A stretch of 64,000 nucleotides of DNA from an uncultured Clostridia bacterium (GTDB lineage: Bacteria; Bacillota; Clostridia; Christensenellales; CAMQZB01). A model generated the notes under the pieces. It was not told the origin of the DNA. It did not search any database and saw only the letters and a list, made by a program, of their open reading frames with translations. Made by a program: the position numbers and the translations under genes. The stretch covers positions 15,877 to 79,876 of the forward strand of contig CAMQZB010000001.1 of the NCBI GenBank assembly GCA_947039455.1, given 5' to 3'. Positions 796 through 56,874 of the stretch are shown piece by piece (position 1 is the first letter of the stretch; every line of letters begins with the position of its first letter).

Positions 796-1440
796 CTATA
801 AATCTAACCAAGAAGGGTCTTGTGGATTCTTTTGGAAAGCAGTAACCATAATTTTTTCTTTAGGAGTTATGTAACCGTGTTCACAAGCAACTTCAGTTAA
901 AGTAGTGAAGTTTGAAAGAGAGATGTTAGTAATATTAGCCTCTTGCAATCTTGTGATACCTTTCGCCATTTCGTAAGTAAAGATAGACACAATACCAAGA
1001 ACAACAGCACCAGCATCTCTTAAAGCCTCAACAACTTCAAGACATGAACCGCCAGTTGAAATTAAATCTTCAACAACAACAACCTTTTTTCCTTTAACTT
1101 GAAAGCCTTCAATTTGGTTTTGTCTACCGTGTGATTTAGCACCGCCACGAACGTAACCCATAGGTAAATCTAAGATTTCTGAAACGATAGCAGCGTGAGG
1201 AATGCCAGCAGTGGAAGTACCCATAACACCTTCACAATCACCGAAGTATTCTTTGATAGTAGAAGCGATAGAGTTTTCAATTAAACCACGAGTTGAGGGA
1301 TACGCAAGTGTTAAACGGTTGTCGCAGTAGATTGGTGACTTAATTCCTGAAGCCCAAGTGAAAGGTTCAGAAGGACTAAGGAACACAGCTTTTATTTCAA
1401 GTAACGCTTTAGCTACTTCAGTTGCAATATTTTTATTCAT
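796..1440 (-). CDS. pyrE: Orotate phosphoribosyltransferase
   Basis: PRTase motif VVVVEDLISTGGS, last position in the pyr operon. Start moved to the second Met (1440), which follows AAGGAG by 8 nt. Confidence 0.9.
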   Translation of the reverse strand: MNKNIATEVAKALLEIKAVFLSPSEPFTWASGIKSPIYCDNRLTLAYPSTRGLIENSIASTIKEYFGDCEGVMGTSTAGIPHAAIVSEILDLPMGYVRGGAKSHGRQNQIEGFQVKGKKVVVVEDLISTGGSCLEVVEALRDAGAVVLGIVSIFTYEMAKGITRLQEANITNISLSNFTTLTEVACEHGYITPKEKIMVTAFQKNPQDPSWLDL

Positions 1441-1531
1441 ATAAAATTCTCCTTTTAAGTACAAGAAATTAAGCTTTGAAAATCATAATTAGTGATAAAA
1501 ACAAAACTATATTTACTAATAAAATAACTAA

Positions 1532-2227
1532 TTAACCAACAAATTCAGCAATACATTGACGGTAAGCTGCAAGGGGATTAGTAGCACCAGTAATACTACG
1601 ACCAACCACAATGAAAGTACTTCCAAGGTCGCTAGCGATTTTTGGAGTAGTAACACGCATTTGATCGTCAGCAGAGTCACCAGCAAGACGGATACCTGGA
1701 GTCACGGAAATGAAGTTGTCCATTTTCGCAATAATAGGTGCCTCAAGTGGAGAACAAACCACGCCGTCAAGACCAGCAAGTTGTGCATTTTCAGCGTATT
1801 TTTTCACAGTATCAGCCATAGAAGCGTTAATAAGAAGTTCATCTTTCAAGGCGAAATCTGAAGTGGAAGTAAGTTGAGTAACAGCAATTAGAAGTGGAGT
1901 TTTTCCACCTTTTGCACCCTCAATTAAACCTTGTTTCGCTTGTTTCATCATTTCAATACCGCCACTAGCGTGAAGATTAGTGATATCAACGCCAAGCTTG
2001 GCAAGGTTTCGCATAGTTCTTTTTACAGTATTTGGAATATCGTAAAGTTTCAAATCTAGGAAGATTTTGAACCCACGTTCTTTCAGTTCAGTAACAAGAG
2101 TAGGGCCTTCTTTGTAGAAAAGCTCCATACCAACTTTAATGTAAGGTTTTTCCTCAGTAAAGTTAGCTAAAAAAGTGTTAAGTTCTAAACGTGATGAAAA
2201 ATCACAAGCAATAATTACGTCTTTCAT
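1532..2227 (-). CDS. pyrF: Orotidine 5'-phosphate decarboxylase
   Basis: DLKLYDIPNTV motif, 231 aa, operon context. Confidence 0.9.
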   Translation of the reverse strand: MKDVIIACDFSSRLELNTFLANFTEEKPYIKVGMELFYKEGPTLVTELKERGFKIFLDLKLYDIPNTVKRTMRNLAKLGVDITNLHASGGIEMMKQAKQGLIEGAKGGKTPLLIAVTQLTSTSDFALKDELLINASMADTVKKYAENAQLAGLDGVVCSPLEAPIIAKMDNFISVTPGIRLAGDSADDQMRVTTPKIASDLGSTFIVVGRSITGATNPLAAYRQCIAEFVG

Positions 2228-3135
2228 TTGAAGGACCTCCCAATAATATCATTTAAATTTTGTATATTTAGTTCTTTCATAACAACAGGTAAATTTTCGA
2301 TAATGTTTTTACAAGCGAAAGGCTCGATCAGATTAGCAGAACCAATCATCACAGCGGAAGCGCCAGCCATCATCATTTCAATAACGTCATAAGCGGAAGA
2401 AACACCGCCCATGCCAACAACAGGAATAGAAACAGCGTTAGCCACTTCGTAAACCATACGCAAAGCCACAGGAAAAATACCAGGGCCAGAGTAACCACCT
2501 TTAGTAACGGAAATAATCGGCTTGCCCGTTTTAGTATTAATACGCATGCCAAGAAGCGTATTAATCAATGAAATCCCGTCCGCCCCAGCATTCTCACAAG
2601 CTTTCGCCATAGCAACAATGTCAGTAACATTAGGAGATAACTTAACCAAAATAGGTTTAGTAGAAATCTTTTTCACCGCAACAACTAAATCGTGTGCAGT
2701 GGTAGGATCAACTCCAAAAGCCATACCGCCGCCTTTTACGTTAGGACAGCTTATGTTCAATTCGATAGCAAAAACATCTTCACAATCATTGAATTTAGCC
2801 ACAGCGGAAGTGTAATCTTCAACTGAATGACCGCCTACATTAGCAATAAGTTTTCCAGAAAAGTGTTTCTTGCAGTGTGGTATTTCATCAGATATAACTT
2901 TGTCAACACCAGGGTTTTGCAAACCCACAGCATTAATCAAACCGCTAGGACATTCAGCGATACGAGGCAACGGATTGCCGTATCGTGAAGCGATAGTGCT
3001 ACCTTTAAGGGATATAGAACCAAGACAGTTGATATCGTAAAATTCAGCGAACTCATAGCCGAACCCAAAAGTTCCACTAGCAGGAATTACAGGATTTTTC
3101 AATTCATAACCGAATAAATTAATTTTAGTATTCAT
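2224..3135 (-). CDS. pyrD: Dihydroorotate dehydrogenase B, catalytic subunit
   Basis: Class 1B features (NISCPNV catalytic Cys, GGV/GG FMN-binding C-terminus). ATGA overlap with pyrF. Confidence 0.9.
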   Translation of the reverse strand: MNTKINLFGYELKNPVIPASGTFGFGYEFAEFYDINCLGSISLKGSTIASRYGNPLPRIAECPSGLINAVGLQNPGVDKVISDEIPHCKKHFSGKLIANVGGHSVEDYTSAVAKFNDCEDVFAIELNISCPNVKGGGMAFGVDPTTAHDLVVAVKKISTKPILVKLSPNVTDIVAMAKACENAGADGISLINTLLGMRINTKTGKPIISVTKGGYSGPGIFPVALRMVYEVANAVSIPVVGMGGVSSAYDVIEMMMAGASAVMIGSANLIEPFACKNIIENLPVVMKELNIQNLNDIIGRSFK

Positions 3136-3136: not shown

Positions 3137-3859
3137 TTAAAAAATCACCTCCGAAGCCTTAAACACAGGACCTTCCTTGCAAACACGAGCATAGCCTTTT
3201 GTAGTTTGAATAGTACAACCCATGCAAGCACCAAAGCCACAACCCATGCGAGCCTCAAGAGAAAGTTCCCCCATATCGGAATGAGAAGCCAAGGCTTTTA
3301 GCATAACCATAGGACCGCAAGCAAAGTATTTATCGTAAGCAATGTTAGAACGCTTTAAGCACTCAACAACGTTACCAGCGAACCCAAAAGAGCCGTCATC
3401 AGTAGCAATAGTTACGTTAGCAATCTTCTTAAATTCCTCAACATAAAACATCTCGTCTTTGTTCCTAAACCCCAAAATCACATTAGCAGTAATCCCTTTT
3501 TCAGCAAAATCATTAGCTAAATTAAATAGTGGAGCGATACCGATACCACCGCCAATAAGCAGTGGGGAAGTAACATTAGAAATGTCAAAAGTATTCCCAA
3601 GTTCAGATAGAACATCAAACACAGTCCCAAAACCAACTTCCGTCATATCAGAAGTGCCAGCCCCAAGAACCTTATATAGTAAAGTCAAGGTATTGTCTTT
3701 ATAACGAGCAACGGAGAAAGGACGACGAAGGTATTTGTTAGGCAGTTGAAGTTCGATAAATTGTCCTGAACGAAGAATTGTATCACCAGTTAAAATCATT
3801 TCAAAAGTGTCGTGTCCAACAGAAGTGTTGGACAGCACAGTCATTTTAATTTGTTTCAT
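3137..3859 (-). CDS. pyrK: Dihydroorotate dehydrogenase B, electron-transfer (FAD/2Fe-2S) subunit
   Basis: C-terminal Cys cluster CGFGACMGC...C, 240 aa, directly upstream of pyrD. Confidence 0.85.
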   Translation of the reverse strand: MKQIKMTVLSNTSVGHDTFEMILTGDTILRSGQFIELQLPNKYLRRPFSVARYKDNTLTLLYKVLGAGTSDMTEVGFGTVFDVLSELGNTFDISNVTSPLLIGGGIGIAPLFNLANDFAEKGITANVILGFRNKDEMFYVEEFKKIANVTIATDDGSFGFAGNVVECLKRSNIAYDKYFACGPMVMLKALASHSDMGELSLEARMGCGFGACMGCTIQTTKGYARVCKEGPVFKASEVIF

Positions 3860-3868: not shown

Positions 3869-6800
3869 CTAGCTAATAGTTGAGATACCCATAGTAATTT
3901 CTTCAAGCACATTAAGAAGTACTGCAACGGTATCTAAAGAAGTGAACACAGGCACGTTATTTTCCACCGCAGTGCGACGAATAATAACACCGTCATGTTG
4001 AGTATGAGAGTTACTTTCGCTACTAGTGTTTACGATGTAAGTAACATAACCTTTGCGAAGTGAAGTAAGAATTTCGTCACTACCTTCGCTGATTTTCTTT
4101 TTCTCACGAGTCTTGATACCATGTTCTTTCAAATAAGTTGCAGTACCAGCAGTTGCCTCGATGTTGAAACCAAGTTGATAGAAACGTTTAATCAAAGGAA
4201 GAGCAGCCTCTTTAGTAGAGTCATTTAGCGTAGCCAAAACAGTACCATAGTTAGAAACCTTCAACCCAGAAGCCTTCAATGCTTTGTAAACAGCACGAGT
4301 CAAACTCTTATCGTAACCAATAGCCTCTCCAGTAGATTTCATTTCAGGAGAAAGTACAGAGTCAAGACCTGATAGTTTAGAGTAAGAGAAAGTAGGAGCT
4401 TTCACGTAGAACTTTTCTTTATTAGGAAGAAGTCCAACATAACCAAGGTCTTTCAAAGAAGTACCAAGCATAACCTTAGTTGCAATATTAGCAATAGGAG
4501 CGCCAGTGGTTTTAGCTAAGAAAGGCACAGAACGGCTAGACCTAGGATTAACTTCGATAATGTATACTTTGTTGTTTCTATCAATAACAAATTGAATGTT
4601 GAAAGGACCAACGATACCGATAGCCATAGCTATGCGAGTGGAGTAGTCAACAATAGTATTACGAGTTTCAGCACTTAGAGAGAAGTCAGGGTAAACGCTC
4701 ATAGAGTCACCACTATGAACACCAGCACGCTCAATATGTTCCATGATGCCAGGGATAAATACATCAGTACCGTCACAAATCGCATCAACCTCACATTCTT
4801 TACCTACCACATATTTATCAATAAGCACAGGGTGTTTTTCGTTAATAGCAATAGCCTCTTTCACAAAAGGAGCTAGCGTTTCGTCATCGTAACAAATGTG
4901 CATCATACGACCACCAAGAACGAATGAAGGACGAACAAGAACAGGATAACCAATTTGGTTAGCAGTAGCAACCCCTTCTTCAACGCTGTAAACTCCCTTA
5001 CCCTCAGGCATAGGAATATTTACGCTATTAAGCACCTCAGCGAACAAATCTCTGTCCTCAGCTAAAGCGATAGAATGACTTGAAGTACCCATAATAGGCA
5101 CGCCAGCATTATGCAAATCTTCCGCTAAGTTAATAGCAGTTTGGCCACCAAGAGCAACAATAACGCCCTTAGGTTTTTCGTATGTAATAATATTCATAAC
5201 ATCTTCATAAGTCAAAGGTTCGAAGTAAAGCTTGTCTGAAAGGGTATGGTCAGTAGAAACTGTTTCAGGGTTATTGTTAATAATGATAGCCTCGAAACCC
5301 GCTTCTTGAATAGCCCAAACAGCGTGAACAGTAGAGTAGTCAAACTCAACCCCTTGCCCAATCCTAATAGGCCCAGACCCAAGAACAATTACTTTCTCTC
5401 TGTCGGATACGATAGACTCATTACCGTTAGAGTAAGTAGAGTATAGGTAAGGAACATAAGACTTAAATTCGTTACCGCAAGTATCGATACTTCTGTATAC
5501 AGGGAACAAGTGGTTTTCTTTACGCAAATTGAACATAGCGTATTCATCAGTACCCCAAAGTTTCGCAATTTCCTTATCTGAGAAACCCATAACCTTAGCA
5601 TCATAAAGAATTTCCATGTTGTTTACGTTGTCCGCAACTACTTTTTCCATAGCAGTAATAGATTGTAGCTTATCAAGGAAGAAGCGATCTATTTTAGTTA
5701 AGTGGTATAAGTAGTCAAGAGGAATATCACGACGAATAGCCTCAGTAAGAGCAAAAATTCTTTCATCGTTGTTAAGGATAATATAATCAATCAAATCGTG
5801 GTTAGACAATTTTCCTAATTTTTCAATCTCCATGTGGCAAACACCGATTTCAAGAGAGCGAACAGCCTTCAAGAAACTTTCCTCAATAGTTCTTCCGATA
5901 CTCATAACTTCGCCAGTAGCTTTCATTTGAGTTGAAAGACGGCGGTCAGCACTTTGGAACTTGTCGAAAGGAAAACGAGGGAATTTAGCTACAACGTAGT
6001 CAAGAGTAGGAGAGAAACTTGCGTTTAAATCTCCAATAGGAATTTCCTCAAGTTTAAGCCCACAAGCAATCTTTGCTGAAACACGAGCGATAGGAAAACC
6101 AGAAGCTTTTGAAGCTAAAGCGGAAGACCTAGAAACACGAGGATTAACTTCGATTACGAAATATTCAAAAGAAGTAGGGTCAAGAGAGTATTGAACGTTG
6201 CAACCACCCTCAATTTTCAGTTCTTTAATGATTTTCAAAGAAGATTGAGCAAGCATGTTGTATTCTTTAGAAGTCAAAGTTTGACAAGGAGCAACAACGA
6301 TTGAGTCGCCAGTGTGAATACCAACAGCGTCAACGTTTTCCATAGAACAAATTACGATTGCAGTATCGTTTTTATCACGCATAACTTCAAATTCGATTTC
6401 CTTGAAACCTTTGATAGATTTCTCAACAAGAACTTGATGAACAGGAGACAATTTCAAAGCGTTAATAGAAAGTTCTCTGATTTCTTTTTCGTTATCAGCA
6501 AAACCACCGCCAGTTCCACCAAGAGTGAAAGCAGGACGAAGGATAATAGGATAACCAATTTTATCCGCCGCCTGAACGATTTCTTCGATAGTGGAAGCAG
6601 TGTAAGATTCTAAAATAGGTTCGCCAATGCGGTTACATAAATCTGAGAAAAGTTGTCTATCTTCCGCTTGACTGATAGCGTCAAACTTAGTGCCAAGAAG
6701 CTCCACTTGACATTCTTCAAGTATTCCTTTGTTGTGGAGTTGCATACCAAGATTAAGCCCAGTTTGACCACCGATAGAGCAAAGTAATCCGTCAGGACGT

Positions 6801-7042
6801 TCGAAACGAATAATTTTAGCAATGTTTTCTAAATCAAGAGGTTCCATGTAAACTTTATCAGCGATTTTTGTGTCAGTCATGATAGTGGCAGGGTTGCTGT
6901 TAGCTAAAATAACTTCATAACCTTCTTCCATAAGTGCCAAGCACGCTTGAGTACCTGCATAGTCAAACTCAGCAGCTTGACCAATAACGATTGGACCTGA
7001 TCCAATAACCATTATTTTCTTAATATCTGTTCTCTTCGGCAT
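3869..7042 (-). CDS. carB: Carbamoyl-phosphate synthase large subunit
   Basis: 1057 aa with duplicated ATP-grasp halves (VIGSGPIVIGQAAEFDY and VLGSGPIRIGQGVEFDY). GGGAGG RBS inside the 3' end of carA. Confidence 0.95.
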   Translation of the reverse strand: MPKRTDIKKIMVIGSGPIVIGQAAEFDYAGTQACLALMEEGYEVILANSNPATIMTDTKIADKVYMEPLDLENIAKIIRFERPDGLLCSIGGQTGLNLGMQLHNKGILEECQVELLGTKFDAISQAEDRQLFSDLCNRIGEPILESYTASTIEEIVQAADKIGYPIILRPAFTLGGTGGGFADNEKEIRELSINALKLSPVHQVLVEKSIKGFKEIEFEVMRDKNDTAIVICSMENVDAVGIHTGDSIVVAPCQTLTSKEYNMLAQSSLKIIKELKIEGGCNVQYSLDPTSFEYFVIEVNPRVSRSSALASKASGFPIARVSAKIACGLKLEEIPIGDLNASFSPTLDYVVAKFPRFPFDKFQSADRRLSTQMKATGEVMSIGRTIEESFLKAVRSLEIGVCHMEIEKLGKLSNHDLIDYIILNNDERIFALTEAIRRDIPLDYLYHLTKIDRFFLDKLQSITAMEKVVADNVNNMEILYDAKVMGFSDKEIAKLWGTDEYAMFNLRKENHLFPVYRSIDTCGNEFKSYVPYLYSTYSNGNESIVSDREKVIVLGSGPIRIGQGVEFDYSTVHAVWAIQEAGFEAIIINNNPETVSTDHTLSDKLYFEPLTYEDVMNIITYEKPKGVIVALGGQTAINLAEDLHNAGVPIMGTSSHSIALAEDRDLFAEVLNSVNIPMPEGKGVYSVEEGVATANQIGYPVLVRPSFVLGGRMMHICYDDETLAPFVKEAIAINEKHPVLIDKYVVGKECEVDAICDGTDVFIPGIMEHIERAGVHSGDSMSVYPDFSLSAETRNTIVDYSTRIAMAIGIVGPFNIQFVIDRNNKVYIIEVNPRSSRSVPFLAKTTGAPIANIATKVMLGTSLKDLGYVGLLPNKEKFYVKAPTFSYSKLSGLDSVLSPEMKSTGEAIGYDKSLTRAVYKALKASGLKVSNYGTVLATLNDSTKEAALPLIKRFYQLGFNIEATAGTATYLKEHGIKTREKKKISEGSDEILTSLRKGYVTYIVNTSSESNSHTQHDGVIIRRTAVENNVPVFTSLDTVAVLLNVLEEITMGISTIS

Positions 7043-8129
7043 AAGTGTTTCCTCCCATTTTGTTCATATATTCCAAGAATTTATCAAATTCCGTGTCATA
7101 TTTGTTAGTGTTAATAATGTTATCAGGGTAAAATTGAATACCGATAACCATATTTTCCTCATCGATAACACCCTCAATGTCGTTATCCATAAGATTGATT
7201 TTGTTCACTTTCAAAGTAGTGTTTTCTATTGATAGTGGGTCGATAGAGAAACGATGATTTTGCACATATGTACCTACTTTTTCAGTAATAGTATCTTTAA
7301 CTGGGTGGTTAGCACCGCTGTGAGGAACTTTCATTGGAGAAACTTTTCCACCGTAAGACATGGCGATAAGAGAAGCCCCAAGAGCGATACCAAAAATCGG
7401 AAGTTTTCCACGAAGTTTAGCAAGTAGTTTAGCAATCTCAGGATAATCTGAAGGATTATCAACACCGCTAGAAACAAGAAGCCCGTCGGGATTGTGGCTT
7501 AAAATATCTTCGTAAGTGGAAGTTAGTGGAGCGACTATAACATTGCAACCAGCATTGTTTAGTTGTTTAATGAAAGAGTTTTTGATACCAAAATCAAGAG
7601 CAACTACGTTGTAAACAGGGTTTTTAGTTCTTGAATGAAAAGTAGGGCGTAAAAGATGTTTTTCGGCAAGTCTTTTCTCTACTTTGTAACCTTTAATTTC
7701 AGCTAAAGCCATTTCGATGTTAGCATCAGCGGAAGTAATCATACAAACCATAGAGCCGTTGTTACGAAGTTCTTTCACGATCATGCGAGTGTCAAGATTA
7801 GAAATACCAGCTGAATCGGAAGTTTCCATAACTTCCCCAAGAGTACGAGTGAATCTAAAGTTTGAAGGCTTGTGGTTGTATTCAGTAACAACAAGACCAG
7901 AAGTAGCAACATTTCTTGACTCATAGTCCTCATCGGACATACCACAGTTGCCAATAAGTGGATAATTCATCACCAAAATTTTACCTAAGTTACTGCTGTC
8001 AGTAACGATTTCTTGATAACCAATCATTGATGTGTTAAACACCATTTCCGCAACAACTGTCTTTTGACTACCGAATCCAGTGCCAAGGAAAGTTTTGCCG
8101 TTTTCAAGAATTAATATTCTGTCGTTCAT
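7020..8129 (-). CDS. carA: Carbamoyl-phosphate synthase small subunit homolog with a degenerate glutaminase site
   Basis: Full-length CarA architecture and operon position. The class-I GATase motifs read GIALGAS (expected GICLGHQ) and QFYPD (expected QxHPE). See the corresponding finding. Confidence 0.85.
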   Translation of the reverse strand: MNDRILILENGKTFLGTGFGSQKTVVAEMVFNTSMIGYQEIVTDSSNLGKILVMNYPLIGNCGMSDEDYESRNVATSGLVVTEYNHKPSNFRFTRTLGEVMETSDSAGISNLDTRMIVKELRNNGSMVCMITSADANIEMALAEIKGYKVEKRLAEKHLLRPTFHSRTKNPVYNVVALDFGIKNSFIKQLNNAGCNVIVAPLTSTYEDILSHNPDGLLVSSGVDNPSDYPEIAKLLAKLRGKLPIFGIALGASLIAMSYGGKVSPMKVPHSGANHPVKDTITEKVGTYVQNHRFSIDPLSIENTTLKVNKINLMDNDIEGVIDEENMVIGIQFYPDNIINTNKYDTEFDKFLEYMNKMGGNTYAEENRY

Positions 8130-8149: not shown

Positions 8150-9361
8150 TTAATCTACAAAATTTCTATAAACTATTTCACCGTTAATCAGTGTTAAACA
8201 GTTTTTACCAAAGTAAGTTTCTCCAATAAATGGAGTGTTGGAACTTTTACTAACAATCTCACAAGCAGTGAAAGTGTGAGAGTTATTTATATCAAGCAAA
8301 GCCAAGTCCGCCGTGGCCCCTTCTTCAATAGAAGTGAAAGGCAAGTTAAACCTAGTTGCAGGATTTTCTGAAGTAATTTCAATAAATTGTTTGTGAGAAA
8401 TTAATCCGTTTTTCACAAAATGAGTATATATAAGGGGCAAAGCAGTTTCCAATCCAGTGATACCGTTAGGCGATTTCTCGCTGTTTTTCTCCTCCGCCGT
8501 GTGTGGTGCATGGTCAGTAGCAATCATTGAAGCCGTACTTGATATAAGTGCGTTAACAGCAGCTTGTACATTCTCACTTGACCGCAAAGGTGGGTTCATT
8601 TGATAGTTATTATTTGGAATACCGTTGTCATTGTTAAGTAATAAATGGTGTGGAGTAACTTCGCAAGTCACGTTCAAACCTTCTTTTTTCGCATTGCTAA
8701 TGAGCCTAAAACTCTCAGCAGTTGATATATGGCAAAAGTGATATTTACAAGGGTGAGAACGAAGCAATTCGATTTCTTTTTCACAAGCTAAGTATTCCGC
8801 CTTTTCGCTAGTACCGTATCCAGTTAGTTCCGCATGAGAAGCAATAACAATATTGTTTTTACCTGCAATGTCCATAGCCTCCGCTAAAATTTCGTAATTA
8901 TTTACACCAACACCGTCGTCTGTAAAGCCTTTTACGTAACTAGACAATTCCGCCAAATCACTTATTTTCTCACCTTTCTCACCAACAGTAACGCTAGCGA
9001 AAGGATAGCAGTGAACAAGAGAATCAGTTGCAAGAATATCAAGCTGAACTTTCAAATTCGCCACAGAATCAGGAGTAGGATTTAAGTTCGGCATAGTCAT
9101 AATTGTACCAAAACCGCCCTTCACCGCAGCAAGAGTACCTGTTTTCACAGTTTCCTTGTGGCAAAACCCAGGTTCACGTAAATGCACATGAACATCAACC
9201 CCAGCGGGTATCAACCACATTTCCTTACAATCAATAACAGGAACATCACAAGCGTGAAGAGCATCTCCAATTTTGTCAATCTTTCCTGAAGATATAGCAA
9301 CATCTTTTTTCACTAAGTTGTTTTCACCTTCAAGTATTAAAACATTTTTTAGTATAATCAT
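8150..9361 (-). CDS. pyrC: Dihydroorotase
   Basis: DVHVHLREPG and ATDHAPH metal-binding motifs, 403 aa. Confidence 0.9.
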   Translation of the reverse strand: MIILKNVLILEGENNLVKKDVAISSGKIDKIGDALHACDVPVIDCKEMWLIPAGVDVHVHLREPGFCHKETVKTGTLAAVKGGFGTIMTMPNLNPTPDSVANLKVQLDILATDSLVHCYPFASVTVGEKGEKISDLAELSSYVKGFTDDGVGVNNYEILAEAMDIAGKNNIVIASHAELTGYGTSEKAEYLACEKEIELLRSHPCKYHFCHISTAESFRLISNAKKEGLNVTCEVTPHHLLLNNDNGIPNNNYQMNPPLRSSENVQAAVNALISSTASMIATDHAPHTAEEKNSEKSPNGITGLETALPLIYTHFVKNGLISHKQFIEITSENPATRFNLPFTSIEEGATADLALLDINNSHTFTACEIVSKSSNTPFIGETYFGKNCLTLINGEIVYRNFVD

Positions 9362-10236
9362 AAATTCCCCTCCAAAACCATTGTGATAATCGCCATACGA
9401 GTGAAAACCCCGTTAGTCATTTGAGTCAAAATCCGAGATTTCTCACACTCAACAACATCGTCCGCAATCTCAATTCCACGATTAACAGGAGCAGGGTGCA
9501 TGATGATAGCATTGTCTTTCATTTTAGCAACTCGCTCAGTTGTCATGCCAAAGTCCTTGTGAAAAGAGCTAGCATTCATAGTTTCATGGTGTTCATGTCT
9601 TTCAAATTGCACACGAAGAAGATTGATAATATCGCAAGTTTCAAGTGCAGTATCAATAGAAATGCTTTTTGCAGTATCGTCAGCAAAGTCAGGTGGACAG
9701 CAAATGAAAACCTCCATACCAAGGCGTTTCATAACTTCCGCATTGCCGTGAGCAACACGAGAGTGCTTGATGTCACCCATAAGGCAAATCTTCAAACCTT
9801 GAAATTTTCCAAAGTTTTCGTAAATAGACATAAGGTCAAGAAGTGTTTGAGAAGGGTGATTGATTTTTCCGTCGCCACCGTTAAAGATTGGAACGCCGAT
9901 GTTTTCAAGTTGGTTGTAATACTTATCATCGCCGTGACGAATAACTAAACCGTCAACACCAAGACATTCAAAAGTTTTGCAAGTATCGTAAAGTGTTTCC
10001 CCTTTTTTCACTGAAGAACAATCAGTGTTAAAATCGATAGGAGTAATTCCAAGGTTCAGCATAGCCATGTGAAAACTGTAAAGAGTTCTTGTGGAGTTCT
10101 CAAAAAACAAGTTAGCCATTTTAACATTGGGGAAACTTTTCTTCTTACCATTTTTGAAAGCAATAGCAAGATCAATAATTTCTTGTATTTTTTTTGTTGA
10201 AACATTTTCTAGTGTAAGTAAACCATTCATAATCAT
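9358..10236 (-). CDS. pyrB: Aspartate carbamoyltransferase catalytic subunit
   Basis: ENSTRT and HPSQTLLD motifs. First gene of the operon, ATGA overlap with pyrC. Confidence 0.9.
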   Translation of the reverse strand: MIMNGLLTLENVSTKKIQEIIDLAIAFKNGKKKSFPNVKMANLFFENSTRTLYSFHMAMLNLGITPIDFNTDCSSVKKGETLYDTCKTFECLGVDGLVIRHGDDKYYNQLENIGVPIFNGGDGKINHPSQTLLDLMSIYENFGKFQGLKICLMGDIKHSRVAHGNAEVMKRLGMEVFICCPPDFADDTAKSISIDTALETCDIINLLRVQFERHEHHETMNASSFHKDFGMTTERVAKMKDNAIIMHPAPVNRGIEIADDVVECEKSRILTQMTNGVFTRMAIITMVLEGNL

Positions 10237-11293: not shown

Positions 11294-12808
11294 TTAAAAC
11301 CAATTATTTGATATGAAATTTACAGTTTCAACCTGTGAATCTTCATCTAATTCAGTGGGTGCTTCTTCAGCTAATTCCGACTGTATTTCTTCCGTAAATT
11401 CATTCTGTGTTTCTTCAATTAATTCAATTTTATCATCAGCATAAAGCAAACGAAGAATGTATGAAAAAAGAAGAAGGAATGAAATCAAACCTAACCAACC
11501 GCCAATAACCATACGATTATCAGTGTAGTCGAAAGATTTGTGTGCAATAATCATTAAAAGCCCAGTGTTCATGAAAACGGTGATAATGCACATAATAGTA
11601 GTGGCGAACAAATGCCAATCGAACTTCCTAACAAGAAGAATAATCAAAGCAATTATAGCACCAAACATATAACGTTCATGCATTTTAAATGAGAATACAA
11701 ACACAGTAGTAATGACAAATGCCGCCATAAGTGGAACGCTCCAAACAGAAGGTTTCTTGTATAAGTAGTAAGCTGTAAAAGCACATGGAACAGCGATTGA
11801 TAAGAAGTTGAACATACCGAATAATATAGTATTAGGAAGTTCCGCAAAGTTCAAATTTAAGATACCCCAAACATTGAAAGCATTTAGAGTATAGTAAGAG
11901 TAATTGCTAACTTGATTGAAGTAAATCTCAAACGGGAATAAAATATTACCAGATAGAATAATTTTATAAGTGAAAGGAATGTTGATAATCAAAAAGAAAA
12001 TCGCACCGTACAAAAACCCCATCATAGAAGGAATAAAAGTTTCATTATGTTTAATCCAACGGAAAACGTAGTACATTCCGATAGCAGGAGCAAGGAAAAT
12101 AAATTGTATTTTAAAGCACATACCAATCATACAAACGAAAATAGCAATCAAGTCCTTTTCCTTTAGCATATAGTAAAATGCAATAATAAAAATCATAGAA
12201 GTGATACCGTCAACTTGTCCCCACATGGCGCTATTAAGTATAACCGCAGGGCAAAGGAAGTAAAAAGCTGAAATAGCCATAGCGTAAAAAGATTTTTTAG
12301 TAACCAATTTAGCGATTTTAAAAATAAATATAGTAGCAAACACATCGCAAATAATAGCAGGCAATCTTTGCAAGAAAAGCATACCAAGTTCACTAACATC
12401 AAATGTTTTAGAAAGAAATCCAATGAAAGATAACACGTACATATATAAAGGTGTGTAGTCGTGTAGCCTATTGATATTAGAAGGATCGCCATTCAAGAAA
12501 TAGAAATCGGAAAGGGGATTATTTATTAAAGATTCCGTCCAAGGAATAAAGAAAGTAGTCACATCAGGGTGAACAAGAGGGCTATAAGCATAAGTTAATC
12601 GAACTACAAGACCGACTAAAATTATAGTAGAAAAAACAACGTAAAAAATATAAGGGAATTTTTGTTCAAAATTATCCTTTTCAAAACGGTGTAATATTGC
12701 TAACCCAACTAAAAATATAGCGGTATAAATTAAAATAATTAATAATAATTTTTCAGGGGATTTCCCATCAATATATAAAGTATCCATAATATAAATAATT
12801 ATCTCCAA
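11294..12808 (-). CDS. Polytopic membrane protein, putative GT-C type glycosyl/mannosyltransferase; start codon uncertain
   Basis: More than 10 predicted TM segments. An N-terminal loop motif (HDYTPLYMYVLSFIG) resembles Gpi18/PMT/ArnT-like enzymes. Acidic C-terminal tail. Confidence 0.4.
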   Translation of the reverse strand: MEIIIYIMDTLYIDGKSPEKLLLIILIYTAIFLVGLAILHRFEKDNFEQKFPYIFYVVFSTIILVGLVVRLTYAYSPLVHPDVTTFFIPWTESLINNPLSDFYFLNGDPSNINRLHDYTPLYMYVLSFIGFLSKTFDVSELGMLFLQRLPAIICDVFATIFIFKIAKLVTKKSFYAMAISAFYFLCPAVILNSAMWGQVDGITSMIFIIAFYYMLKEKDLIAIFVCMIGMCFKIQFIFLAPAIGMYYVFRWIKHNETFIPSMMGFLYGAIFFLIINIPFTYKIILSGNILFPFEIYFNQVSNYSYYTLNAFNVWGILNLNFAELPNTILFGMFNFLSIAVPCAFTAYYLYKKPSVWSVPLMAAFVITTVFVFSFKMHERYMFGAIIALIILLVRKFDWHLFATTIMCIITVFMNTGLLMIIAHKSFDYTDNRMVIGGWLGLISFLLLFSYILRLLYADDKIELIEETQNEFTEEIQSELAEEAPTELDEDSQVETVNFISNNWF

Positions 12809-12934: not shown

Positions 12935-13072
12935 AAATAAAACAAATTGTCTTCAGGGCAGGGTGCAATTCCCGATCGGCGGTGATAGTCCGCAAGCTAG
13001 CATAAAAATGCTGGCAGATTTGGTTAAATACCAAAACCGACAGTTAAAGTCTGGATGAAAGAAGGCGTGATT
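12935..13072 (+). promoter_or_regulatory. FMN riboswitch (RFN element)
   Basis: Matches the conserved RFN core: cttcagggcagggtgcaattcccgatcggcggt...agtccgcaagc...gatttggttaaataccaaaaccgacagttaaagtctggatgaaagaagg. It sits upstream of a riboflavin transporter gene. Confidence 0.9.
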
Positions 13073-13230: not shown

Positions 13231-13896
13231 ATGAAAAATACAAAAACCCAAAAGCTTACAATCATAGCAATGCTGTCAACCCTAGCATTTATCAGCGTAT
13301 TAATGTTCCGATTACCAATATCAGTGCTACCATTTTTAAAGTACGATCCAAAGGATATAATAATCGTAATCGCAGGATTTATCTATACCCCAATGACAGC
13401 AGTAGTGATTTCAGTAATCGTTTCCACTTTAGAAATGGTAACAATAAGTGACACATTATTTATAGGATTTATCATGAATATTTTGTCAACCTGTGCTTTT
13501 ACGGTGCCGGCAAGCATAATATATCATAGACGGAAATCAATGAAAAGTGCAATATTAGGACTAGGAGTAGGAATTGTAGCTATGGTAATCGTAATGACCG
13601 CATGGAATTATTTCCTAACACCGCTGTACGCAAAAATACCACGAGAAGAAGTAATAGCAATGCTAGCACCGATAATCGTGCCATTTAACTTAATAAAAGG
13701 CGGACTAAATGCAGCAATCACAATGTTAGTATATAAACAAGCCTCAAGTGCGTTGAAAAGTGCAAACCTAATCCCAAAAACCAGTGAAAAATCAAGTAGT
13801 GTTACAAAAGAAACCAACTGGATAGTATTAATAAGTAGCGGAATAATTGTGGTTTCACTAATATTTATAATATTGGTGATGAAAGGAATACTATAA
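13231..13896 (+). CDS. ribU: Riboflavin transporter, ECF S-component
   Basis: Six-TM small membrane protein with a RibU-like N-terminus (LTIIAMLSTLAFISVLMFRLP...FLKYDPKD), preceded by the FMN riboswitch. Confidence 0.8.
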   Translation: MKNTKTQKLTIIAMLSTLAFISVLMFRLPISVLPFLKYDPKDIIIVIAGFIYTPMTAVVISVIVSTLEMVTISDTLFIGFIMNILSTCAFTVPASIIYHRRKSMKSAILGLGVGIVAMVIVMTAWNYFLTPLYAKIPREEVIAMLAPIIVPFNLIKGGLNAAITMLVYKQASSALKSANLIPKTSEKSSSVTKETNWIVLISSGIIVVSLIFIILVMKGIL

Positions 13897-14003: not shown

Positions 14004-14987
14004 ATGAAAATAAGAATAGGAATATACGGCTATGGAAATCTAGGCAGAGGAGTTGAATCTTCAGTGTTGCAAAATAAAGATATGGAGTTGGTGGGAGTAT
14101 TTACAAGACGTCTACCAAAAAACGTAACGACTTTATTTGACACACCAGTTTATAATGCAAAAGACATTGGCACTTTTAAAGACAAAATTGACGTATTAAT
14201 TGTATGCGGTGGATCAGCAACTGATTTGCCAATTCAAACGCCATTCTTGGCGGAAATGTTCAACGTAGTTGACAGCTTCGATACTCACGCAAATATCCCT
14301 GCGCATTTTGATAATGTAGACAGATCTTCAAGACTTTGCGGAACAACAAGTATGATTTCAGTGGGTTGGGATCCAGGAATTTTCTCACTAGGCAGACTAT
14401 ATTCTGAAACAATCCTTCCAGAAGGAAACACATATACATTCTGGGGTGAAGGTGTAAGCCAAGGTCACTCTGATGCAATCAGAAGAATCGAAGGCGTAGC
14501 TGATGCAAAACAATACACAATCCCAGTGCCAGCAACGGTTGAAAAAGTTCGTGCAGGCTCAACTGATACGTTCTCAGCAAGAGAAATGCATACAAGAGAG
14601 TGTTATGTAGTAGTGAAAGACGGCGCAGATAAATCACGTATCGAAAGAGAAATCATTCATATGCCAAACTACTTTGAAAACCATAAAACAACAGTAGCGT
14701 TTGTGTCACAAGAAGTATTAAACAAAGATTTCAGTGGCTACCCACACGGCGGATCAGTTATCCGTGCGGGAAAAACTGGAGTAGACGGAAAATCTACAGG
14801 AATAATCGAATGTTCATTGAAACTAGACAGCAATCCTGAATTTACAGCATCAGTGTTAGTAGCATATGCAAGAGCGTTAACAAGACTACACAACGACGGA
14901 GTAATCGGCTGTCTAACAGTCTACGATATCCCACCAAAATACCTAACAACAAAATCCGACCAAGAAATAATCAAAAACCTACTATAA
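14004..14987 (+). CDS. ddh: meso-Diaminopimelate D-dehydrogenase
   Basis: N-terminal IRIGIYGYGNLGRGVE closely resembles the Ddh Rossmann start. 327 aa. Confidence 0.8.
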   Translation: MKIRIGIYGYGNLGRGVESSVLQNKDMELVGVFTRRLPKNVTTLFDTPVYNAKDIGTFKDKIDVLIVCGGSATDLPIQTPFLAEMFNVVDSFDTHANIPAHFDNVDRSSRLCGTTSMISVGWDPGIFSLGRLYSETILPEGNTYTFWGEGVSQGHSDAIRRIEGVADAKQYTIPVPATVEKVRAGSTDTFSAREMHTRECYVVVKDGADKSRIEREIIHMPNYFENHKTTVAFVSQEVLNKDFSGYPHGGSVIRAGKTGVDGKSTGIIECSLKLDSNPEFTASVLVAYARALTRLHNDGVIGCLTVYDIPPKYLTTKSDQEIIKNLL

Positions 14988-16037: not shown

Positions 16038-16589
16038 ATGTTTATAGTTTGTGGCATTGCAATAGATTCCAAAAACAGCGAAAAGTTTCAAGAAGTTTAT
16101 AACAGCTACGCAGGCAAGATGTTTGCGGTGGCTTTAAACTTGACGAAAAACAAGCAAGATGCGGAAGATGTTTTACAACAAACTTTGATTAGCGTATACA
16201 AAAACATATCGAAAATCGATAGTGTAACAAGCAGTCAAACCTCATGCTATTTAGTGAAAGCAACAAAAAATACTGCAATAAATCTTATGAAAAAACGTGG
16301 AAAAGATACAACGATGTGTATTGATTACATGGAAATTCAAAGTAAAACCAACGTTGAGAACGATGTGGAAATCAACTCTGACGTGGAAAAAGTTTATCAG
16401 CGTATTTTGTCACTTGATATGAAATATCGTGACGTGTTGACCTTGCATTATCTAAATCATTTCAAAACCCGTGAGATAGCAAAAATACTAAAAATCCCCA
16501 ACAACACAGTGAAAACCCGACTTGTTCGAGGAAGAAATATCTTGCTGTCTAAATTTTATAATGGAGAATTAAACAATGAAACAAAATAA
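16038..16589 (+). CDS. ECF-type sigma-70 family sigma factor
   Basis: Region 2 (AEDVLQQTLISVYKNI) and region 4 HTH (TREIAKILKIPNNTVKTRLVRGR). 183 aa. Confidence 0.8.
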   Translation: MFIVCGIAIDSKNSEKFQEVYNSYAGKMFAVALNLTKNKQDAEDVLQQTLISVYKNISKIDSVTSSQTSCYLVKATKNTAINLMKKRGKDTTMCIDYMEIQSKTNVENDVEINSDVEKVYQRILSLDMKYRDVLTLHYLNHFKTREIAKILKIPNNTVKTRLVRGRNILLSKFYNGELNNETK

Positions 16590-18054
16590 TAAAAACAATA
16601 TTAATAAAGAAGAAAATCAACTACTAGAACAAGCCTTTGATAAGTATGGAAAAGAGCTTGACGCTAGTTTTAAAGCGGTTCAACCTGAACAAGTTCCACA
16701 AGCAGTAAAGGATAAATTTCAACAAAAAAAGAAGAAACCAATCTTTAATTTCACCAAACTAAAACTAGGAATAGCAACCTCCCTTATGGCAGTTTTAATA
16801 GTCCTAGTATCAGTAATCAGCTTTGGAAACAGCGGAATTGACGGTGACGGATTAGTCTATGCAAGCGTGTATCCTGACGGATTGACTTCAACGGAATATC
16901 GTAAATACGCTAATGATTTCCAAGATAATGAAGATTATAAAACTAATGTAAACGATTTCGCAATGGCAACAGCATCTAAACTTTTAGGAGATAATGAAAG
17001 CAACGAAATTTACTCTCCACTAAGCTTATATTTCGCAATGACACTTTTAACAAGTGGTGCTGATGGTGAAACCCTAGAAGAACTTTTAGCTGTAATGAAC
17101 GAAACAACAGTTGATGAATTAGTGGATAATGCAAACACAATGTATAATGTGCTATACACAAATAACGACACATCAAAAACGCAAATTGCTAATTCATTGT
17201 GGATAGCGGATAATTTAAATTTCCAAAAAAACTATCTTGATTATGCGGAAAAGTTATTTGCTTCGATATATAATGTAGATTTTTCCGACCCCAAAACATT
17301 AGAACTTCAAAACCAATGGATAGAAGAAAACACAAATGGCACTTTAGATACTACCGATAGAAGAATTGACGCCAACGCAATTATTTCTATAATCAACACG
17401 ATATATTACTACTCAGAATGGAACGAAGAATTTGTTTCTGATGATAATATTGACGGTCAATTCACACTTGATAATGGCGAAATTATCGATACGGAATTTA
17501 TGACAAGGTACTTTAAAAAGAGTGCTACATTTTATGAAAATGAGAAATTTCAACGCTCATCATATGGACTTGATTTAAAGGACGGATCGAACGTGGTTTT
17601 CGTTCTTCCAAAAGACGGATATAATGTTTATGACTTACTAGAAACTGAAGATAGTTTAAATGAAAGTTTCTTTGGTGGAACAAAGTATAAAGGTGAATTA
17701 ACATATGAAATTCCAAAATTCACAGCAAAAAGCGAGTTTGATATTATTGAAACCATGAAAGAGCTAGGAGTGGAAAAAGCATTTGACGCTGATAATGCTG
17801 AATTTCAAAACATGTTAGCAGGAATTGAAACGGGCAGTGTATCAAAAATCAGTCAAAAAGCAAGTTTTTCTATTGACGAAAACGGCGTAGAAGCATCATC
17901 ATACACGGAAGTTGCACTGCGTGGTACTGGCGGACCTATCGCATCAATCTACAAATGCGACATGATACTTAACAAACCATTTTTGTACGGTATCGAAAAA
18001 GATGGTGTACTAATGTTCGTTGGAGTATGCAACAATCCAAATGAAATTAACTGA
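16576..18054 (+). CDS. Membrane-anchored serpin in anti-sigma position (short cytoplasmic N-terminus, one TM segment, extracytoplasmic serpin domain)
   Basis: 14-nt overlap with the sigma gene. TM segment LGIATSLMAVLIVLVSVISFG. Serpin hallmarks YSPLSLYFAMTLLTSGADGETLEEL, hinge ENGVEASSYTE and C-terminal NKPFLYGIEK...GVCNNP. Confidence 0.75.
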   Translation: MKQNNKNNINKEENQLLEQAFDKYGKELDASFKAVQPEQVPQAVKDKFQQKKKKPIFNFTKLKLGIATSLMAVLIVLVSVISFGNSGIDGDGLVYASVYPDGLTSTEYRKYANDFQDNEDYKTNVNDFAMATASKLLGDNESNEIYSPLSLYFAMTLLTSGADGETLEELLAVMNETTVDELVDNANTMYNVLYTNNDTSKTQIANSLWIADNLNFQKNYLDYAEKLFASIYNVDFSDPKTLELQNQWIEENTNGTLDTTDRRIDANAIISIINTIYYYSEWNEEFVSDDNIDGQFTLDNGEIIDTEFMTRYFKKSATFYENEKFQRSSYGLDLKDGSNVVFVLPKDGYNVYDLLETEDSLNESFFGGTKYKGELTYEIPKFTAKSEFDIIETMKELGVEKAFDADNAEFQNMLAGIETGSVSKISQKASFSIDENGVEASSYTEVALRGTGGPIASIYKCDMILNKPFLYGIEKDGVLMFVGVCNNPNEIN

Positions 18055-18136
18055 AAACATAAATCAAACTAACGTAGTAAAAAACACAAACTAAATCACC
18101 GAAAAAGCACTAAACTAAAAGAACGTAGCATATAAT

Positions 18137-18175
18137 AAAATGATGTTATTACAAAAGTAGTAACATCATTTTATA
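18137..18175 (+). terminator. Strong hairpin between the two serpin genes (terminator or 5'-UTR structure)
   Basis: 16-bp stem with 1 mismatch (aaaatgatgttattac/gtagtaacatcatttt), aaaa loop, then ttttat. It ends about 15 nt before the RBS of the next gene. Confidence 0.6.
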
Positions 18176-18202
18176 GATAAAACAGCAAGGAGAACGGAAA
18201 AA

Positions 18203-19414
18203 ATGAAGAATGACGTATTAGTATATCAAGCGGTATACCCAGATGATTTAACAGAAAATCAAGTAAATGAAACAAAAGCGGTATTGTCTAACATGCCCAA
18301 TTACATAAGAACGGTAAACGAATTTGCCCTGTCAACCGCAGCGGAATTGCTAGGTAGTGAACAAGGAAACGAAATATTTTCCCCTATTAGTTTATACTTT
18401 GCAATGGCAATTTTAACATCAGGAGCGGAAGGAAATACCCTTGAAGAATTGCTTGATGTTATGCACGGATCAAGCGTTGACCAAATCAACCAAAACGCCC
18501 ACGCAATGTATAATGCACTGTATATTAACAACGAAAAATCTAAATGTCAAATAGCAAATTCCCTTTGGCTAGATAAAACATTGACCTTTGCTGAACAGTA
18601 TTTAAACTACGCAAAAAACCTGTATAGTTCCCTTTACAGCGTAGATTACACAGACGATAACACAGCTAAATTGCAAAACAAATGGATAACGGAAAACACA
18701 AACAGCGTACTTGATGTATCCGAGAGAACAGTGCCAAAAGACACGGTTTTAACTATCCTAAACACAGTATATTTTAAATCCGCTTTCTACGATAATTTCG
18801 ACGAAAGAGCAACAGCAGTTGGGAAATTTGAACTAGCTGACGGTAGCGAAGTAGATGTTGATTACATGAAAAAATACTTCTATAGCGATGGCGAATTTAC
18901 CGATGGCGAAAAGTATTTGAGAACATCACACAACCTATATTTCAAAGACGATTCAAAAGCGATTTTTATACTACCAAAAGACGGATATACAGTTGATGAC
19001 CTAATAAAATCACAAGACACCCTTCAAGAATGTTTCTATGGCGGTGAAGATTTGTACGGTGAGTTGACCTATGAAATACCAAAATTCACAGCAAAAAGTG
19101 AGTACGGAATAGTGGATGCAATGAAAGCACTTGGAGTTCATGACGCATTTTGCGAATCTGCAAATTTCAGTAATATGATGTCTAACAGCGAAGGTGTGAT
19201 GGTGTCTGATATCTCACAACAAGCCAGTTTTGAGATAGACGAATACGGCGTGGAAGCGGCAGCATTCACGGAAATCCGCATGGTGAGAACCTCAATGCCA
19301 ATGCCACCAGAAAACAAATGCGAAATGATTTTCAACAAACCTTTCTTATACGGTATTGAAAAGAACGGAATTCTAATGTTTTTAGGAGTTTGTAACAACC
19401 CAAAAGAGATGTAA
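18203..19414 (+). CDS. Serpin paralog without signal peptide or TM segment
   Basis: Collinear with the ectodomain of 16576..18054 (FSPISLYFAMAILTSGAEGNTLEEL, hinge EYGVEAAAFTE, NKPFLYGIEK). In-frame stop at 18161-18163 and AAGGAGA RBS fix the start. Confidence 0.8.
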   Translation: MKNDVLVYQAVYPDDLTENQVNETKAVLSNMPNYIRTVNEFALSTAAELLGSEQGNEIFSPISLYFAMAILTSGAEGNTLEELLDVMHGSSVDQINQNAHAMYNALYINNEKSKCQIANSLWLDKTLTFAEQYLNYAKNLYSSLYSVDYTDDNTAKLQNKWITENTNSVLDVSERTVPKDTVLTILNTVYFKSAFYDNFDERATAVGKFELADGSEVDVDYMKKYFYSDGEFTDGEKYLRTSHNLYFKDDSKAIFILPKDGYTVDDLIKSQDTLQECFYGGEDLYGELTYEIPKFTAKSEYGIVDAMKALGVHDAFCESANFSNMMSNSEGVMVSDISQQASFEIDEYGVEAAAFTEIRMVRTSMPMPPENKCEMIFNKPFLYGIEKNGILMFLGVCNNPKEM

Positions 19415-49146: not shown

Positions 49147-49551
49147 ATGAAGTACTCAGAAATTTCTATTGGAATGAAAGACAGTCTTTCAAAAACTTTT
49201 TCAGAAGCCGACATCGTTATGTTTGCTGGCGTATCATTGGATGTAAATCCATTGCATATGAATGAAGAGTTTGCAAAAACAACAGTATTTGGCAAAAGAA
49301 TTTGTCACGGAATGTTGTCTTGTGGATTAATATCTGCGTGCCTAGCAAACAAATTGCCAGGTGCTGGAACAATCTACTTGGGTCAAGAAGTAAAATTCAC
49401 TGCACCAGTATTTATTGGTGACACAGTAACAGCTGAGCTTGAAATAGTTGAGATGAGAGATGATAAACATATTATCAAACTTTCTACAAACTGTTTTAAT
49501 CAAGACGGAAAACAAGTTATAGCAGGAACAGCAACTGTAAAGTTGCCATAA
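49147..49551 (+). CDS. MaoC-like (R)-specific enoyl-CoA hydratase (PhaJ-type)
   Basis: 134-aa single hot-dog with DVNPLHMNEEFAKTTVFGKRICHGML (hydratase 2 motif). Confidence 0.8.
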   Translation: MKYSEISIGMKDSLSKTFSEADIVMFAGVSLDVNPLHMNEEFAKTTVFGKRICHGMLSCGLISACLANKLPGAGTIYLGQEVKFTAPVFIGDTVTAELEIVEMRDDKHIIKLSTNCFNQDGKQVIAGTATVKLP

Positions 49552-49571
49552 TTTTATTAGAGGTGTATTAA

Positions 49572-50711: not shown

Positions 50712-50723
50712 GAGATAATTAAT

Positions 50724-51509: not shown

Positions 51510-51520
51510 AGGAGACTAGA

Positions 51521-52501: not shown

Positions 52502-52717
52502 ACTTATAAGGAATTATAAGGGAACTATAAAAAACAGAGTTAATTTTAAAATTGATTACTAGTATACTGAAATATAGCAGTAAATTTTTTTTCATATTAT
52601 CTAAAAGAGGCTTGCCTAATGGGAGATTGTAAAACGCAATTTTCCATGGGCGAAATTCTTTAAAATGATAGTAGAAAAATAATATGAAAGTTTTTCATGT
52701 TATTTTTCATTTTAGTA

Positions 52718-52894: not shown

Positions 52895-52918
52895 ATTTTA
52901 GACAATAGGAGAAAAAAG

Positions 52919-56873: not shown

Positions 56874-56874
56874 A

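Follow-up and report, generated by a model that had tools for sequence, protein, structure and literature searches.

The stretch of DNA analysed here, hereafter the window, comprises 64,000 nucleotides (nt) from an uncultured Clostridia bacterium (GenBank assembly GCA_947039455.1, contig CAMQZB010000001.1, positions 15,877 to 79,876), and contains a complete Firmicutes-type pyrimidine operon in the order pyrB-pyrC-carA-carB-pyrK-pyrD-pyrF-pyrE. Its carA homologue encodes a small subunit of carbamoyl-phosphate synthetase (CPS) in which the catalytic triad of the class-I glutamine amidotransferase (GATase) domain has been replaced. The genes of the operon, from first to last, are as follows.

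9358-10236, minus strand: pyrB, aspartate carbamoyltransferase, first gene of the operon (profile matches)
8150-9361, minus strand: pyrC, dihydroorotase (profile matches)
7020-8129, minus strand: carA homologue, 369 amino acids (aa), CPSase small-chain N-terminal domain plus a class-I GATase-like domain without catalytic triad
3869-7042, minus strand: carB, 1057 aa, intact (NF003671, 1455 bits)
3137-3859, minus strand: pyrK, dihydroorotate dehydrogenase electron-transfer subunit (profile matches)
2224-3135, minus strand: pyrD, dihydroorotate dehydrogenase 1B (profile matches)
1532-2227, minus strand: pyrF, orotidine monophosphate decarboxylase (profile matches)
796-1464, minus strand: pyrE, orotate phosphoribosyltransferase, the real start probably being slightly downstream of the first TTG

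The initial annotation of this DNA, made by eye from the letters, had described the operon position and carB as intact, and in fact all 8 of the 8 operon genes are intact, with CarB aligning to Escherichia coli CarB over residues 1-1037 (1000 bits). The two car genes overlap by 23 nt, the stop codon of carA falling within carB, and a GGAGG stands 8 nt upstream of the carB ATG; the identical 23-nt overlap is kept in three further triad-less lineages (four including the window), which fits co-translation of both subunits. An Rfam scan upstream of pyrB for a PyrR attenuator found none, the sole match in the window being a flavin mononucleotide (FMN) riboswitch elsewhere.

The carA product matches PF00988 over residues 6-131 (E 1.9e-42) and PF00117 over residues 177-353 (E 7e-33), and passes both NCBI equivalog models for the small subunit (NF009475, 323.8 bits against a cutoff of 221; TIGR01368, 319.1 bits against a cutoff of 307.35). 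An AlphaFold2 model (57 homologues) has a mean predicted local distance difference test score (pLDDT) of 87.1 and a predicted template-modelling score of 0.88, and Foldseek returned template-modelling (TM) scores of 0.88 to 1JDB chain F, 0.88 to 1C30_B and approximately 0.82 to the N-terminal moiety of human CPS1. Its sequence, its fold and its context all place the window gene in the CarA family.

Triad and glutamine pocket of the window CarA

Residues were assigned to columns through a phmmer alignment to E. coli CarA chains (1JDB, 1C30, 1BXR and others), to which the window CarA aligns over its full length, and three independent MAFFT alignments of 120, 150 and 385 homologues gave the same columns. 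The sites that concern the glutaminase, all taken from the alignment, are listed below.

7452-7466, minus strand: G-V-D-N-P (residues 222-226) for G-P-G-D-P, with Asp224 for Gly243
7383-7385, minus strand: codon GCT of Ala249, at the E. coli nucleophile Cys269
7371-7376, minus strand: Ala252-Ser253 for His272-Gln273
7122-7130, minus strand: Tyr334-Pro335-Asp336 for His353-Pro354-Glu355 (Tyr334 at 7128-7130, Asp336 at 7122-7124)
7101-7121, minus strand: N-I-I-N-T-N-K (residues 337-343) for E. coli A-S-P-G-P-H-D (356-362), the loop of lowest confidence in the model

The E. coli nucleophile motif PVFGICLGHQ thus reads PIFGIALGAS, the His-x-Glu motif FQGHPEA reads IQFYPDN, and SNGPGDP reads SSGVDNP. 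That the Cys-His-Glu triad reads Ala-Tyr-Asp had been claimed in the initial annotation and was upheld by phmmer and by all three MAFFT alignments, as was the column assignment by comparison with TIGR01368, PF00117 and the structure chains; the coordinates that it gave for the three codons were exact, and its reading of the SNGPGDP segment was equally correct in the alignment to E. coli CarA. A further replacement, absent from its list, affects the conserved loop A-S-P-G359-P360-H361-D after the His-x-Glu motif. This loop is what the small subunit contributes to the wall of the ammonia tunnel in E. coli, and the remodelled segment (residues 338-343) is the sole internal part of the window CarA model with a pLDDT below 50. 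Within the glutamine-binding and oxyanion set, Gln273, which binds glutamine in E. coli CarA, has become Ser253 and Gly243 has become Asp224, while Gly241 and Ser47 are retained.

A triad at shifted positions was considered and ruled out. The only Cys residues of the protein are 62, 129 and 195 and the only His residues of its C-terminal domain are 212, 270, 275 and 292; as every one of them aligns with a non-catalytic E. coli position, and no Cys or His is available near the pocket, the triad cannot hide at a displaced site. Nor are the substitutions a matter of chance, given that Cys, His and Glu are invariant at the three columns in 239 intact homologues. The window CarA fails the features of a class-I triad amidotransferase at the G-x-C-x-G nucleophile, the His-x-Glu pair and the full glutamine-binding set, and without Cys269, His353, Glu355, Gln273, Gly243 and the tunnel loop it should, judged from its sequence, be unable to possess glutamine-hydrolysing activity.

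Sequencing, assembly or frameshift error is a practically negligible explanation for these residues. Over 18,129 bp the window agrees at 100% identity with an ENA contig from a separately deposited assembly. A249, Y334 and D336 also recur in two variant alleles that come from other metagenomes (1 and 7 aa differences), and relatives of 54% identity have Ala and Tyr at the same columns. It is also very improbable that carA is a relic, either as a pseudogene not yet disrupted or as part of a whole de novo pathway being lost to salvage, even though its GATase domain evolves faster than that of relatives with an intact triad. By the Nei-Gojobori method the ratio of non-synonymous to synonymous substitution rates (dN/dS) of carA is 0.10 between the window and allele L090 (19.5 synonymous and 7.5 non-synonymous differences) and 0.03 between the window and allele L091, with 0.115 for the GATase-like half alone (against L090). 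These carA values are equal to or below those of the adjacent pyrB and pyrC (0.09-0.17), and carA is clearly under purifying selection, though the difference counts are small. Decay is likewise difficult to reconcile with a full-length reading frame retained across lineages whose CarB proteins are only 47-82% identical, with N-terminal-domain motifs that are 90-100% conserved, and with the conserved carB overlap and the intact state of the entire operon.

Triad-less homologues in uncultured Clostridia

Loss of the triad is not peculiar to this genome and appears to be widespread and recurrent in uncultured anaerobic Clostridia, with relatives of the window CarA carrying the same or equivalent substitutions. 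Among the best 120 homologues in a collection of 5.8 billion proteins, 27 lack at least one triad residue, and the three closest (53-54% identity) are all triad-less (G-V-A-L-G-C ... F-Y-P-E). Among the best 150 cluster representatives at 50% identity, C-H-E was present in only 77, and approximately 65 were full-length proteins with Gly, Ala or Ser at the Cys position and/or scattered residues at those of His and Glu. Pooling sequences of 330-420 aa gave a classified set of 381, consisting of 239 intact proteins and 142 without the catalytic Cys and/or His, proportions that are not an estimate of prevalence because the query was itself triad-less and fast-evolving proteins split into more clusters. 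The named triad-less members are all metagenome-assembled Clostridia, Clostridiales or Clostridiaceae, and NCBI calls these proteins 'glutamine-hydrolyzing carbamoyl-phosphate synthase small subunit' (MEG1519428.1, MBR6750989.1, NLZ25412.1, MBR2349394.1, NLB82326.1 and others), a name that is very probably wrong for them.

We then scored, in the 142 triad-less homologues, the retention of columns that are invariant in intact proteins (E. coli numbering). The residues kept least often were C269 (12%; Gly in 95, Ala in 14 and Ser in 12), H353 (18%), S47 (20%), T283 (22%), G359 (26%), H272 (29%) and P360 (32%), followed by E355 (40%), Q273 (43%), Q51 (44%), Y48 (50%), D362 (51%) and N240 (53%). 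The pattern of loss is specific, falling on the nucleophile, the general base pair, the glutamine-binding residues and the tunnel-wall loop, and C269 is replaced by small residues only, which the strained elbow around the nucleophile would accept. Motifs of the N-terminal domain are 90-100% conserved in the same set (G12, E29, T34, G38-Y-Q-E41, P58, G61, G64 and D114-T-R116), and G241, L270, G271, H290, G292, N294, P296, N311 (91%), H312 (87%), Q351 and P354 are also retained. In 18 of the 142 (P0002-P0004, P0176, P0179, P0197 and others) a Cys stands at position 272 within G-x-A/G-L-G-C, where the window has Ala252.

With CarB identity as a clock, we compared genome pairs whose CarB proteins are 70-80% identical. 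Where both CarA proteins are intact, the GATase domain and the N-terminal domain are each 71% identical, whereas where both are triad-less the figures are 45% for the GATase domain and 60% for the N-terminal domain. The window and its closest relative, locus L082, share 82% identity in CarB, 63% in the N-terminal domain of CarA and 50% in the GATase-like domain. Constraint on the dead GATase domain is strongly relaxed but not abolished, and the CarB-docking domain is much less affected.

The residues that survive in the pocket could be taken to mean that the GATase-like domain has acquired a new chemistry or ligand, be it another nucleophile, another amide donor, or glutamine or a metabolite acting as an allosteric signal. 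N311, H312, N294, G292 and H290 are 87-97% conserved in the triad-less proteins, several of these (including the window) have Asp at the Gly243 position, and the Cys at 272 might offer an alternative nucleophile in the sequences that possess it. We nevertheless regard a redirected domain as improbable. The window has Ala at both 269 and 272 and a pocket without any Cys, no replacement is common to the lineages (position 269 being Gly, Ala or Ser, and position 353 Tyr, Ala, Glu, Gln, Asn or others), S47 and Q273 are lost in the triad-less set (although the window CarA keeps S47), and the fast evolution of the GATase domain speaks for constraint that has been relaxed, not redirected.

In a neighbour-joining tree of CarB (without support values) the window and loci L082, L083, L089, L085 and L087 form one triad-less clade with 71-82% CarB identity, and the triad states within it are AYD, AYE, GAE, GLD, GHA and CEV. 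Four further groups stand apart. L003, L007 and L012 (N/G-Q) have CarB proteins 78-81% identical to the intact-CarA partners of Limiplasma-like genomes and 65-68% identical to the main triad-less clade; in L014 (G-H-E, only the Cys being lost) CarB shares 72-74% identity with the intact group; L092 (GYD) branches deeply on its own; and the CarB of L093 (G-H-G) is just 47-49% identical to all others. The triad would therefore seem to have been inactivated separately at least four times, the nesting of L003, L007 and L012 and the remoteness of L093 being robust by the identity matrix. Different first hits are indicated by lineages that kept the Cys and lost the His (C-E-V) and others that lost the Cys and kept His and Glu (G-H-E).

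Nitrogen source and role of the retained small subunit

In all 10 of the 10 distinct triad-less contexts that were recovered (the window, L003, L007, L012, L082, L083, L085, L087, L089, L092 and L093, minus duplicates) carA is flanked by pyrC and carB within the pyr operon. In L092 (GCA_031553555.1, 1-7715) a distance of 160 bp separates pyrB from the end of a complete upstream argG-argH-argC-argJ-argB-argD-argF cluster, and in L083 (1225-4817) argG-argH-argF lie a few kb upstream of the pyr operon. This proximity suggests that the CPS feeds arginine synthesis too, so that the triad-less enzyme may serve arginine as well as pyrimidines. One further gene of the window touches on nitrogen supply.

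14004-14987, plus strand: ddh, meso-diaminopimelate dehydrogenase (DAPDH_C, 2e-66), 4 kb from the pyr operon and syntenic in L082

The enzyme takes up free ammonium and so offers an ammonium-dependent route to diaminopimelate. In Bacteroides thetaiotaomicron, ddh and the orphan carB2 are the two ammonium-dependent alternatives that are important at high ammonium (PMC8121099), and a ddh near the pyr operon fits an ammonium-based nitrogen economy. L093 originates from a mesophilic anaerobic digester (its sample, ERR7015089, is an anaerobic digester). For the ammonia-rich niche proposed in the initial annotation the support is circumstantial only, namely gut-type gene content, the nearby ddh and one independent digester lineage.

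We found no second carA or carB among 93 loci of approximately 20 kb each, and outside the operon the 64-kb window contains no other CPS, glutaminase, glnA, gdh or amt gene. Elsewhere in the genome there might still be an intact CarA or a complete second CPS that depends on glutamine, in which case the triad-less CarA-CarB would be a high-ammonium isozyme and the organism would not be obligately ammonia-dependent. A high-ammonium role of this kind has been proposed for CarB2 beside CarAB in B. thetaiotaomicron, which runs two CPS systems depending on ammonium supply (PMC8121099), and the data span 64 kb of this genome and approximately 20 kb at each of the other loci. Such a dual system is conceivable but unlikely in our view: the triad-less CPS of L092 is directly flanked by a complete arg cluster and the pyr genes, as expected of a sole CPS, and a second CPS would leave unchanged the prediction that the window enzyme cannot use glutamine.

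Our preferred reading, to which we assign a probability of roughly 0.7, is that the CPS encoded by the window operon depends on ammonia and retains CarA as a subunit without a catalytic role; we infer its NH3-dependence, the reason for the retention of CarA and the link to ammonia-rich anaerobic habitats. The initial annotation had likewise suggested an ammonia-dependent CPSase with CarA retained as a structural or allosteric subunit, and the sequence-level checks support it. CarB would carry out the whole synthesis, that is, phosphorylation of bicarbonate, attack by NH3 to form carbamate and phosphorylation of the carbamate, with the NH3 drawn from the cytoplasm and not from glutamine. CarA, presumably unable to bind or hydrolyse glutamine, would persist as a stoichiometric, translationally coupled, non-catalytic subunit whose conserved N-terminal domain still docks on CarB and whose GATase-like domain keeps its fold. 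It probably stabilises CarB (folding, stability, allosteric competence) and/or shapes an external route for NH3 to the carboxyphosphate site. NH3 might enter by way of the glutamine pocket, now emptied, and the old tunnel, in which the lining residues N311 and G292-N294 are conserved, or else by a gap at Ala265 of CarB and the remodelled loop 337-343; both routes are compatible with the data. When isolated, the E. coli large subunit can use ammonium to make carbamoyl phosphate (Trotta et al. 1971, as cited in PMC8121099), and blocking or perforating the tunnel deprives E. coli variants of glutamine use but leaves their activity with NH3 normal (PMC4655335).

On the CarB side, the residues C232, A251 and A314, which make up the gate where the ammonia tunnel ends (PMC8674909), are retained in the window. 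In the 31 CarB proteins that are partnered with an intact CarA, 269 columns are conserved to at least 97%; the window CarB departs at 10 of the 269, and 12 columns change across the triad-less lineages. When changes tracking triad loss were sought, only P88 to C and R265 to A/K stood out, and neither is universal.

6248-6250, minus strand: codon of CarB Ala265, a position that is Arg in 31 of 31 CarB partners of intact CarA

The window and its closest relative have Ala at position 265, and Lys is present there in three further lineages without the triad. A 'perforation' mutant of E. coli combining alphaP360A, alphaH361A and betaR265A was reportedly described by Fan and colleagues in 2009, which we take as an unconfirmed lead only. 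Position 88 (window codon 6779-6781, minus strand) is Pro in 31 of 31 partners of intact CarA. The six members of the main triad-less clade all have Cys there, as does L092, and L014 has Ala; the change to Cys may be a plain lineage marker, or may be linked to the altered small subunit.

Several points weigh against an ammonia-dependent enzyme of this kind. The apparent Km of the E. coli enzyme for ammonium is very high (approximately 0.1 M NH4Cl), so that a physiologically useful NH3-dependent enzyme would need adaptations, and the CarB column comparison yielded no clear adaptive signature for NH3 in the window CarB. The pocket and tunnel residues N311, H312 and N294 stay conserved, and the pocket may serve some other use. 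The genome beyond the 64-kb window may hold a second intact carA, a CPS or a carbamate kinase. Finally, the survey of homologues is biased towards sequences that resemble the triad-less query, and the separate losses are read from a CarB tree that carries no support values.

Among known systems, vertebrate CPS I (human CPS1, PDB 5DOU/5DOT) takes its ammonia from solution and shares with the window enzyme the retention of a dead, CarA-derived glutaminase-like module: human CPS1 has lost the catalytic Cys and kept the glutaminase-like domain, and ammonia is thought to bypass the old active site (PMC4655335). However, CPS I is a single fused chain of 1500 residues in which only the Cys has changed (to Ser) and which needs N-acetylglutamate, whereas the window has separate, overlapping genes, has lost all three triad residues along with glutamine-binding residues, is of independent bacterial origin, and offers nothing that points to control by N-acetylglutamate. 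CarB2 of B. thetaiotaomicron (BT3866) is similar in being the CPS of a gut anaerobe that probably runs on free ammonium alongside a ddh route, the window ddh being 4 kb from the operon. This orphan large subunit, a proposed ammonium-dependent CPS (Liu et al. 2021, PMC8121099), has no small subunit and coexists with a canonical CarAB, in contrast to the conserved, coupled and catalytically dead CarA of the window. Canonical CarA/PyrAA (E. coli, Bacillus subtilis; TIGR01368) has the two-domain architecture, fold and operon position in common with the window CarA, but possesses Cys269, His353, Glu355, Gln273, Gly243 and the S-P-G-P-H-D tunnel loop, all of which the window CarA lacks. Engineered E. 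coli small-subunit mutants (C269S, 1C30; G359F, 1M6V; H353N-type structures also exist) are single mutations made in the laboratory, while the window carries natural equivalents at sites 269, 353, 359 and 360 plus R265A of CarB, in a combination that is multi-site, ancient and under selection. Archaeal enzymes that use ammonia directly, the carbamate-kinase-like enzyme of Pyrococcus and the small CPS of Methanobrevibacter smithii (cited in PMC8121099 and PMC6022934), have an amino-acid-kinase fold or are half-size synthetases without a small subunit, unlike the window CarAB.

A review of carbamoyl-phosphate sources lists only the glutamine-using CPS II for bacteria (PMC6022934), and according to Liu et al. 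(2021) all eubacterial CPSs tested were glutamine dependent and prokaryotic ammonium-dependent CPSs were known only from Archaea, with CarB2 as a candidate exception (PMC8121099). Our full-text literature searches, of incomplete coverage, found no description of a triad-less bacterial CarA, so that novelty is not proven. The best description of the window system is that of a bacterial two-subunit analogue of CPS I, belonging to a large, repeatedly evolved and apparently undescribed group in anaerobic Clostridia. The window gene points to a second bacterial solution, apparently much more widespread, in which CarA was kept and its glutaminase killed. Put more broadly, anaerobic Clostridia of gut, rumen and digester might repeatedly have abandoned glutamine, with CarB plus a pseudo-glutaminase CarA, the latter a structural or ammonia-entry module, as the sole CPS for pyrimidines and arginine and with an adapted affinity for NH3; we see the case for this wider proposal as evenly balanced.

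If true, these systems would be a natural replicate of the transition from CPS II to CPS I, with which to probe the purpose of the dead domain and the external ammonia route, and would supply a ready set of independent losses for the study of pseudoenzyme subunit evolution. Many uncultured gut, rumen and digester Clostridia would bypass glutamine at the carbamoyl-phosphate step, which would matter for metabolic models and for the recycling of host ammonia and urea nitrogen. The view of bacterial CarAB enzymes as glutamine-dependent would be overturned, and a systematic annotation error would be exposed, thousands of 'glutamine-hydrolyzing' database entries being wrong.

Other genes of the window

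The content of the rest of the window, at 35% G+C, resembles that of gut-type butyrate-producing Clostridia, and includes bcd-etfBA, a thiolase, a CoA-transferase, two serpins and a 2910-aa surface protein. The remaining features of interest are as follows.

11294-12808, minus strand: 504-aa open reading frame between the pyr operon and the riboswitch
12945-13070, plus strand: FMN riboswitch (RF00050, 111.7 bits)
13231-13896, plus strand: S component of an energy-coupling factor (ECF) transporter
16038-19414, plus strand: extracytoplasmic-function-type sigma-70 factor (16038-16589), 492-aa serpin, then 403-aa serpin
33269-42001, plus strand: 2910-aa open reading frame
49147-54928, plus strand: butyrate-type cluster of MaoC dehydratase, acyl-CoA dehydrogenase, EtfB, EtfA, thiolase and short-chain dehydrogenase/reductase-family reductase
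55983-61531: ATP-binding cassette transporter of branched-chain-amino-acid type
61803-63113, plus strand: acetyl-CoA hydrolase/transferase family gene

The 504-aa reading frame has no Pfam or NCBIfam match, is syntenic in L081 and L091, and is present in L082 as a 470-aa gene. The riboswitch lies upstream of the ECF S component, which is presumably for riboflavin uptake (RibU-type) and is syntenic in L082. The sigma factor gene overlaps that of the 492-aa serpin by 14 nt; the serpin domain of the latter begins at residue 124, and the N-terminal extension could be anti-sigma-like or a membrane anchor. The 2910-aa product matches only GLUG and YDG domains and is probably a giant cell-surface protein, comparable to a 3155-aa YDG/MBG_2 protein that adjoins the pyr operon in L085 and L086. 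The branched-chain-amino-acid-type transporter lies between the butyrate-type cluster and the acetyl-CoA hydrolase/transferase family gene.

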